From NCBI RefSeq assembly GCF_003334405.1, contig NZ_QOWM01000007.1: a stretch of DNA of 64,000 bases; one strand, given 5' to 3'. Made by a program: the position numbers and the translations under genes. The notes beneath the pieces were generated by a model that saw only the letters and a list, made by a program, of their open reading frames with translations, searched no databases and was not told where the DNA came from. Every line of letters begins with the position of its first letter. Positions within the stretch are counted from its first letter, which is position 1. Shown piece after piece: positions 35,828 through 36,808 of the stretch. The stretch comes from Escherichia coli (GTDB taxonomy: Bacteria > Pseudomonadota > Gammaproteobacteria > Enterobacterales > Enterobacteriaceae).

Positions 35828-36808
35828 TCACTTAGTTGCTGCCTTGATACCGCTCGAATGATTTTGTGAATTTACGTTGATGTCGCGATTCAGCCAGGCC
35901 ATGTATTCCGTTACGCCTTCGGCAACGGTTTTGAACGGTTTGTCATAACCCGCCGCGCGCAGATTCGTCAGATCTGCCTGCGTGAATGCCTGATAGCGGC
36001 CTTTCAGTTTATCCGGGAACGGAATGTATTCGATCTGGCCTTTCTTGTGATAAGCAAGCGTTGCATCGGCTACCGCCTGGAAGGATTCCGCACGACCAGT
36101 ACCGAGGTTGAAGATGCCGGAAACGCCATTTTCCAGGAACCACAGGTTTACATCTGCCACGTCGCCAACATAGACGAAGTCGCGTTTAAAGTTCTCGCTA
36201 CCTTCGAACAGCTTCGGTGATTCACCGTTATTAAGCTGGGTGTTGAGATGGAAAGCGACGCTCGCCATGCTGCCTTTATGGCCTTCACGCGGTCCATAAA
36301 CGTTGAAATAACGGAAGCCAACAATCTGTGAGTTTGCTTCCGGCAGAATTTGACGAACATATTCATCAAACAGGAATTTCGAGTAACCGTAGACGTTCAA
36401 CGGTTTTTCGTACTCGCGGGATTCAATAAAGTCGGAAGTGCGACCGCCGTAAGTGGCTGCGGATGAAGCGTACAGGAACGGGATTTCACGCTCCAGGCAG
36501 TAGTGCAGCAGCTCCTTGGAGTATTGATAGTTGTTATCCATCATATACTTGCCGTCCCACTCGGTGGTGGAAGAGCACGCGCCTTCGTGGAAAATCGCTT
36601 CGACATCGCCGAACTCTTCGCCAGCCATAATCTGGATCAGGAAGTCTTCCTTATCCATATAGTCTGCGATATTCAGGTCCACCAGGTTCACAAACTTGGT
36701 GCCGTCTTTCAGGTTGTCCACCACCAGAATATCGGTGATGCCTTTGTCATTCAGGGCTTTAACGATGTTGCTGCCGATAAAGCCCGCGCCGCCGGTAACG
36801 ATGATCAT
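35828..36808 (-). CDS. hldD: ADP-L-glycero-D-manno-heptose 6-epimerase, 326 aa as encoded here (reference is 310 aa, ending ...WLNRDA)
   Basis: Translation [33 protein letters not shown]... recognised as HldD/RfaD; the first 309 residues match, then the frame runs on as [17 protein letters not shown] before the stop. Confidence 0.92.

Follow-up and report, generated by a model that had tools for sequence, protein, structure and literature searches.

Analysis of a 64,000-nucleotide stretch (hereafter the window) of Escherichia coli contig NZ_QOWM01000007.1 (assembly GCF_003334405.1) revealed an unusual junction between two genes of lipopolysaccharide (LPS) core synthesis, hldD (rfaD/gmhD) and waaF (rfaF), which lie in this order on the minus strand. 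The hldD gene is longer than usual, almost certainly because its 3′-end enters a complete 127-bp element of the enterobacterial repetitive intergenic consensus family (ERIC, also named IRU or RU-1) that, together with a 9-nt linker, holds the place of the Ala-310 codon, the TAA stop codon and the intergenic spacer. This long allele is genuine and common, and its distribution is practically that of the main R2-type waa haplotype of E. coli.

The product of the gene is HldD (ADP-L-glycero-D-manno-heptose 6-epimerase) over the whole catalytic protein, residues 1-309 being 100% identical to the crystallised E. coli enzyme (PDB 1EQ2, 310 aa; E = 4e-212). The length of 310 aa, correctly assumed in the initial annotation of this DNA, is that of 1EQ2 and of the 933-nt rfaD genes annotated by RefSeq in K-12-type and many other E. 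coli strains, and it is overwhelmingly the commonest one among the best 120 homologues, from Enterobacterales. The protein encoded in the window has 326 aa, with 17 residues in place of the terminal alanine, and the 16 additional C-terminal residues up to a new TGA, which had been read from the open reading frame, are therefore real. RefSeq annotates the identical 981-nt rfaD (WP_000587766.1), and the exact 326-aa protein occurs on at least 1,000 public contigs. These numbers come from exact look-ups, which replaced a search with full-length HldD, since clustering at 90% merges the 326-aa and 310-aa forms; a protein search with the 44-aa C-terminus returned fragments only. The body of the gene differs from K-12-type alleles by approx. 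3% of nucleotides (approx. 28 sites) and, as residues 1-309 are the same as in 1EQ2, essentially all of these differences are silent. The tail is polar and of low complexity. In an AlphaFold model based on a 31-sequence alignment (mean pLDDT 54.8) all residues from 234 to 326 scored below 50, which is too poor to judge the tail.

In the short alleles of E. coli, 15 nt (GCATAAGAGCTCTGC) reach from CGCGAC to the waaF start codon, and the junctions read either AATCGCGAC GCA TAA GAGCTCTGC ATG or GAC GCG TAA CT ATG. The window has 133 nt in the same place, a net gain of 118 bp, composed of the linker and the full ERIC, with both GCA-TAA and the 9-nt ancestral spacer missing (Table 1); the 15 nt of the empty site have been replaced, not merely interrupted. 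The element contributes 45 nt to the coding sequence of hldD and 3 nt, the start codon, to waaF. The linker is always 9 nt long in the full-length orthologues described below, with a variable sequence. The extension had been described as read-through of the usual stop codon. This description does not apply, since the ancestral GCA-TAA is absent and no in-frame stop codon lies between GAC (35884-35882) and the TGA, which leaves nothing to be bypassed or recoded.

Table 1. Features of the hldD-waaF region of the window
Feature	Position	Strand	Basis or remark
hldD (rfaD/gmhD) coding sequence, long allele	35828..36808	-	326 codons + TGA; open reading frame list; RefSeq annotation
Canonical HldD part, residues 1-309, ending AWLNRD (GAC at 35884-35882)	35882..36808	-	match to 1EQ2
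9-nt linker ATCAACGTA, codons 310-312 (I-N-V)	35873..35881	-	neither ERIC nor ancestral spacer
Out-of-frame TAA in GTAAAT, incidental, spanning the linker/ERIC boundary	35872..35874	-	sequence
Complete 127-bp ERIC/IRU (RU-1), in the Wilson & Sharp orientation relative to hldD	35746..35872	-	consensus alignment, fold, inverted repeats
ERIC-encoded tail, codons 313-326, from the left hairpin arm	35831..35872	-	near-identical or identical in 8 other species
New hldD stop codon TGA, within the conserved ERIC core motif AAGTGAATC	35828..35830	-	TGA invariant in alignment
Apical stem-loop of the ERIC (core, ERIC-PCR primer sites), beginning 3 nt past the hldD stop	35794..35825	-	inverted repeat
waaF Shine-Dalgarno sequence AAGGA, in the ERIC right arm, paired in free mRNA	35757..35761	-	folding
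waaF (rfaF) coding sequence, ATG (35748-35746) at ERIC consensus positions 125-127	34702..35748	-	open reading frame list, RefSeq, alignment

The assignment of the element to the ERIC/IRU/RU-1 family rests on four features, since the TA termini of the family are not recognisable in this copy: (i) local alignment to the published 127-nt consensus of E. coli ERIC/RU-1 (Delihas 2007; PMC2759123, Table 1a) is gapless over positions 2-126, with 97 of 125 nucleotides identical (77.6%), which makes the element colinear with the family at its typical length of approx. 127 bp, (ii) a degenerate pattern for the central core (the GTGAATCCCCAGGAGCTTACATAAGTAAGTGACTGGGGTGAGCG region) found one match with 0 mismatches, where 0 were expected from 100 shuffles, (iii) the sequence forms a long imperfect palindrome (arms 35747-35772/35846-35871 and 35794-35807/35812-35825), and (iv) it belongs to a multi-copy family: used as a query, it hits 53,544 sites across 5,426 E. 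coli genomes, with a median of 11 copies to a genome, and almost all of these sites are in unannotated intergenic DNA. The predicted minimum free energy of the RNA is -51.7 kcal/mol, compared with -31.3 ± 3.6 for shuffled sequences (z = -5.7). As in the rest of the family, filled and empty sites are found among strains. Other ERICs are mostly intergenic within transcription units, and the six further E. coli copies that we inspected (hsdM-hsdR, queA-acpH, puuR-puuC, dxs-yajO, rhlB-gppA and pmbA-cybC), all of which align over the full length, are intergenic; the window copy differs in lying inside the coding sequence of hldD and the start codon of waaF.

No promoter or terminator was predicted within or beside the ERIC, and Rfam gave only one sub-threshold match, with no curated RNA family covering the element. 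The match was to V_AS5 (RF02818, 'Vibrio RNA AS5'; model positions 1-129 of 129 against window 35750-35873, minus strand; 29.7 bits, E = 2e-4, gathering score 96), and this Vibrio family is itself probably an ERIC relative. In two of the other E. coli copies, queA-acpH (locus L006, 421-430) and rhlB-gppA (locus L009, 415-425), the right end of the element, GAAGGATGAAGTGTAT followed by ATG, abuts or overlaps the start of acpH and gppA; the right arm thus repeatedly provides an AAGGA Shine-Dalgarno (SD) sequence at a working distance.

A 401-nt junction query matched end to end in 480 of 5,426 complete E. coli genomes (8.8%, at ≥99% identity), all with the identical long junction. In the remaining genomes the match was split into two parts with a span of 283 bp (one listed genome: 276 bp). 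The waa cluster of the window reads waaQ-G-P-(GT8)-B-O-J-Y-Z-(GlcNAc transferase), with waaL, waaC, waaF and hldD following on the other strand, a gene order which we take to be that of the R2 core type. The waaK-waaL region of the window is present in 501 genomes, in 481 of them at ≥99% identity, compared with the 480 that carry the long hldD allele; strain ML35 is among the carriers of the allele. A link to R2-core strains, which had been suspected, therefore holds for the main R2 haplotype. It does not extend to the divergent R2-like strains PT62 (98.8%) and O127:H6 E2348/69 (91.1%), whose junction is short, so that the ERIC marks the dominant R2 haplotype but is no prerequisite of the core type. 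When the haplotype was searched for in a constructed form that lacks the ERIC (GACATCAACGTATGAAA), no genome corresponded to it, all 480 matches at ≥95% identity being the two-piece long form. The long-allele hldD and waaF genes differ from those of short-allele E. coli by 3-4.5% of nucleotides.

The same junction is found in other genera. A scan of one genome per species with a degenerate pattern (MAWLNRD codons, 0-30 nt, CAAAATNATTC) revealed an ERIC between hldD and waaF in 11 further species, and a Phytobacter-type lineage also has one. The matches of the scan comprised four Citrobacter species plus C. sedlakii and C. portucalensis, and, outside that genus, Enterobacter sp. JUb54, E. hormaechei subsp. 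hoffmannii, Raoultella terrigena, a Pluralibacter metagenome-assembled genome, Buttiauxella noackiae and Leclercia sp. In eight species the junction is of the window type, with a 9-nt linker, termini ATTCAC...GTGAAT, an unchanged reading frame and TGA, and a GTGAATGAA that overlaps the start codon of waaF; their HldD tails end with (I/N)KAA(T/A)K before the stop. HldD proteins of 326 aa are recorded for Raoultella planticola, R. ornithinolytica and C. freundii/farmeri as well, and at least 1,000 contigs carry the E. hormaechei form. Where the ERIC is missing, as in Salmonella, Klebsiella and the E. cloacae complex, the junction consists of GAC GCG TAA, 2 or 9 nt and ATG, from which it follows that the 310-aa form is ancestral. 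The carriers share an idiosyncratic junction (no ancestral stop codon, a 9-nt linker, variant termini, and the ATG at consensus positions 125-127), and this indicates that the hldD-waaF ERIC descends in all of them from a single old insertion.

Several natural variants alter the end of HldD. In Buttiauxella the tail reads AATQNHSGGIKAANE up to the stop codon. Raoultella terrigena (locus L017, approx. 4950-5070) has a 14-nt deletion in the left arm, by which the stop is shifted to a TAA located 2 nt before the customary TGA (tail SDTNSQNHSGS). In Citrobacter sp. Cu233 (locus L015, 8460-8880) each arm carries one extra insert, both starting with GTGACAAAT(T/C)(C/T)GTCTGGAAC, so that the palindrome is symmetrically enlarged; hldD stops early there by a TCA to TAA change (tail NATN). 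In the Phytobacter-type lineage (locus L029, approx. 2120-2265) a CAA to TAA change places the stop five codons past NRD, giving the tail NGTHS and a protein of 314 aa, which occurs on 10 contigs.

The element is far better conserved than its surroundings. Mean pairwise identity among nine full-length orthologues was 95.8% for the whole ERIC (96.1% for its coding left arm, 95.6% for its non-coding right arm), 86.8% for all sites of hldD and 81.9% for all sites of waaF, and it fell to 58.9% and 51.4% at the fourfold-degenerate sites of hldD and waaF, respectively, and to 65% in the 9-nt linker. Only 21 of 127 columns of the ERIC alignment are variable, with a mean of 5.3 differences per pair, and third codon positions are identical in 96.8% of cases in the 14 tail codons vs 65.0% in the hldD body. 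The orthologous copies are 94-97% identical to each other across genera and, in BLAST alignments, only 79-84% identical to the generic consensus.

The hairpin itself has been maintained. Across the alignment of 11 orthologues, standard pairs fill 94.3% of the pair cells and six pairs have changed on both sides, values reached by 0 of 500 shuffles (slid controls: 0-2). One clean series runs from G-C (in most copies) through G-U (E. hormaechei) to A-U (Leclercia), and helix 5, the apical stem-loop, includes four pairs with compensatory changes; RNAalifold returned essentially the same structure. RNA of the hldD sense is more stable than the antisense RNA in all 11 orthologues, by 5-15 kcal/mol, through several conserved G·U pairs. 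Changes in the tail are non-synonymous as often as silent (I to N, T to A and N to S vs two silent ones), and the variable sites lack codon periodicity in both the sense tail and the antisense frame (6/5/9, p = 0.52). The conserved structure, the lack of periodicity and the mixed tail changes together suggest that it is the sense RNA, and not the peptide, that is constrained.

An antisense small open reading frame was considered as a source of the constraint and rejected, given the lack of codon periodicity and the differences between genera in an 80-aa frame on the plus strand (window 35619-35861), which crosses the ERIC in antisense and reaches the first part of waaF. Its C-terminal part resembles the 'RU-1f' frame of Delihas, its length and start vary among genera, and it is without RefSeq annotation. 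It is most likely a spurious product of the repeat.

Folding predictions suggest how the hairpin might act on waaF. In free E. coli mRNA the probabilities of being unpaired were 0.00/0.27/1.00/0.02/0.01 along the waaF SD (mean 0.26) and 0.02/0.06/0.97 along its AUG. The predicted partner of both is formed by hldD codons 313-321, which places the pairing inside the upstream reading frame, as unmasking of a ribosome-binding site would have it, in silico. When the mRNA was masked to 7-12 nt past the actual stop codon, as it would be blocked by a terminating ribosome, the mean probability for the SD was 0.89-0.93, compared with 0.26-0.30 for a hypothetical stop at codon 311, the ancestral stop position. 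The corresponding values were 0.70-0.73 vs 0.26-0.29 in E. hormaechei and 0.86-0.93 vs 0.27-0.30 in the Phytobacter-type lineage, whose natural early stop is still inside the left arm.

According to the model that we propose, the ribosome-binding site of waaF would be locked in the ERIC stem of free hldD-waaF mRNA, and ribosomes translating hldD into the left arm would unzip the stem and expose this site. Initiation at waaF would thereby be coupled to translation of hldD, in replacement of the proximity coupling of a 2- or 9-nt spacer, and the element may also alter mRNA decay, as reported for Yersinia ERICs. The 16-residue tail would then result from the passage of ribosomes, without adding a function to HldD. 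Judging from these models, it is plausible, if somewhat short of probable, that the ERIC has been retained as an intercistronic hairpin for a role in coupling or decay. With a little more reserve, it may be regarded as a domesticated mobile element: one ancient insertion, kept at approx. 96% identity with its loops and synonymous sites conserved too, whose hairpin gates the translation of waaF. The element would, on the same tentative footing, have been retained while synonymous sites became saturated in Escherichia, Citrobacter, Enterobacter, Leclercia and Pluralibacter; the HldD tail could be the footprint of the requirement for a hairpin, and decay of hldD mRNA is perhaps gated as well.

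The opposite possibility, which we consider doubtful, is that the ERIC is a selfish and functionless passenger, similar between genera only through recent spread by horizontal transfer, re-insertion of a master copy or gene conversion. ERICs do resemble mobile elements, with filled and empty sites among strains (PMC2229807); the distribution of this copy within Escherichia, Enterobacter and Buttiauxella is patchy, the short allele works in most enterobacteria, and the conserved 3′-end of hldD and 5′-end of waaF could have served as recombination anchors. Any transferred patch would, however, have included the linker, whose identity across genera is only 65% (3-4 of 9 bases are common to the linker of E. 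coli and those of the others), next to 127 nt that are 94-97% identical. In E. coli both flanks are typical of the species as far as the edge of the element, and we detected no foreign patch in 60-nt bins beside it, for which reason import from another genus was rejected for any but a very short patch. A search of the 5,426 genomes found no paralogue of the window ERIC above approx. 90% identity in those without the allele, so that E. coli offers neither a master copy nor a donor for gene conversion. In addition, the odd junction is common to all carriers, and independent insertions would not recreate it. The E. coli-like flanks and the diverged linker within the same 136-nt stretch thus argue against recent patch transfer, and the high conservation points to purifying selection on the sense RNA.

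Three further explanations were weighed. According to one, which by analogy with Yersinia seems rather unlikely as the principal role, entry of ribosomes would block the hairpin, an RNase E site in the right arm would become accessible, and degradation of the hldD segment, in place of translational coupling, would set the hldD:waaF ratio. It has the Yersinia ERIC work behind it (as presented in the reviews PMC2229807 and PMC3184786), and the hldD frame does enter an ERIC whose sense-strand structure is conserved. Such effects of RNase E on decay are compatible with translational coupling, and the two are not mutually exclusive. Selection of the tail peptide itself, for the stability, oligomerisation or interactions of HldD, is very unlikely. 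The tail is near-invariant in eight species, but this conservation is at the nucleotide level, including third positions, the non-coding right arm is as well conserved as the coding left arm, and neither the balance of non-synonymous and silent changes nor the absence of codon periodicity is that of a selected peptide. Natural variants truncate or alter the tail, which is moreover polar and low in complexity. Finally, the initial annotation had put forward a frameshifting indel of approx. 4 bp near the original stop and, alongside a genuine allele, an edited site or an error of sequencing or assembly; apart from the genuine allele, we regard this group of explanations as practically excluded. 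An out-of-frame TAA is indeed present 8-10 nt past GAC, and removal of ATCA would yield GAC ACG TAA. It is no sign of an indel, however, since it lies across the boundary of linker and ERIC, belongs specifically to the linker of E. coli (other genera have ACAAAT or ATAAAT in place of GTAAAT) and is missing from most orthologues, and since 15 nt have been replaced by 133. Error and editing are contradicted by the agreement of 480 independent complete assemblies and the public contigs, and by the absence of any ERIC-less genome of this haplotype, which leaves the genuine allele.

Several observations weigh against a single domesticated insertion with a role in coupling. Both alleles occur within Escherichia, Enterobacter and Buttiauxella, a patchiness that needs repeated loss or transfer. 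A 2- or 9-nt spacer is sufficient for over 90% of E. coli and likewise for Salmonella, Klebsiella and the E. cloacae complex, and the ERIC is therefore dispensable for the operon. Translation of the tail and any effect on waaF are thermodynamic and sequence predictions, and the estimate of conservation is one from nine full-length orthologues collected with one strict pattern, without a control locus of orthologous ERICs. Most of the double changes in the hairpin come from the divergent Buttiauxella copy. In the rhlB-gppA ERIC, too, the ATG of the downstream gene is found at the right end, yet the upstream gene stops before the element, and read-in is thus no general requirement. In addition, the termini read AATTCAC...GTGAATG and not TATAC...GTATA as in the consensus; positions 1-2 and 126-127 are AA and TG, a TA target duplication cannot be recognised either, and for this reason the course of the insertion can no longer be retraced. 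It seems that the termini changed at a later time; ATTCAC and GUGAAU still pair.

Fusions of an ERIC to the 3′-end of a gene, with removal of its stop codon, were described before (PMC2759123). In Erwinia carotovora the RU-1 fusions of Delihas (2007), the amidase ECA3499 and the threonine dehydrogenase ECA0168, have lost the stop codon in the same manner as hldD (PMC2759123). They differ in using a 42-aa frame (YTRH.SSC...) of the opposite strand, whereas the hldD frame closes at the core TGA after 14 codons and does not belong to that type, and in being lineage-specific, whereas the hldD ERIC is common to several genera. The gene hldD is not mentioned in that work (PMC2759123).

Ribosome-dependent effects of ERICs on mRNA have likewise been described. 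In Yersinia, according to the work of De Gregorio et al. (2005) as summarised in two reviews (PMC2229807, PMC3184786), ERICs are co-transcribed and render upstream transcripts less stable in a ribosome- and orientation-dependent manner, with an RNase E site in the ERIC RNA. The hldD-waaF ERIC resembles them in lying between co-oriented genes of an operon, in overlapping the upstream stop codon and in having a hairpin that ribosomes could disrupt; it differs by also carrying the downstream SD and start codon.

Coupling by unmasking of a ribosome-binding site is classically exemplified by the coat and replicase genes of RNA phage MS2 and by rpmI-rplT of E. coli. The predicted pairing of the downstream SD and AUG with the upstream reading frame is of the same kind, the partner being native coding sequence there and a mobile repeat here. 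Full-text literature searches retrieved no paper linking ERIC with hldD, rfaD, gmhD or waaF. Both ERICs and fusions at the 3′-ends of genes are already established, and it is the unusually deep and tight conservation that is the notable part of the present case.

ERIC/IRU elements, reportedly treated by Sharples & Lloyd in 1990, Hulton et al. in 1991 and Wilson & Sharp in 2006, have been known since 1990-91 and are ubiquitous in ERIC-PCR typing, with their function unsettled. The hldD-waaF copy is unusual in being orthologous across genera, conserved beyond the neutral sites of its flanks, and built into the coding and initiation signals of both neighbours. If it has been domesticated, the ERIC-plus (R2) and ERIC-minus alleles of E. 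coli would make ERIC function testable at the LPS core locus; filled and empty alleles could show whether an ERIC can serve as a translational coupler or a decay element in the heptose branch of core synthesis. Annotators should accept the 326-aa HldD as a legitimate, common form that marks the main R2 haplotype, and no correction, frameshift flag or readthrough label is warranted.

Two further observations concern the surroundings of the junction. The gene directly upstream of hldD in the window (approx. 36809-37030) is kbl, as in strain L73, vs yibB in the K-12-type genome, which means that this flank of hldD is polymorphic in E. coli too. A second ERIC-derived element is located in the waaO-waaJ spacer (window 28473-28600, plus strand), with the ends TATACTCTAAATAATTCGAGTTGCAGGA ... 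GCAGCACATGCAACTTGAAGTATAACGAGTATATA enclosing a non-ERIC centre of approx. 65 nt.

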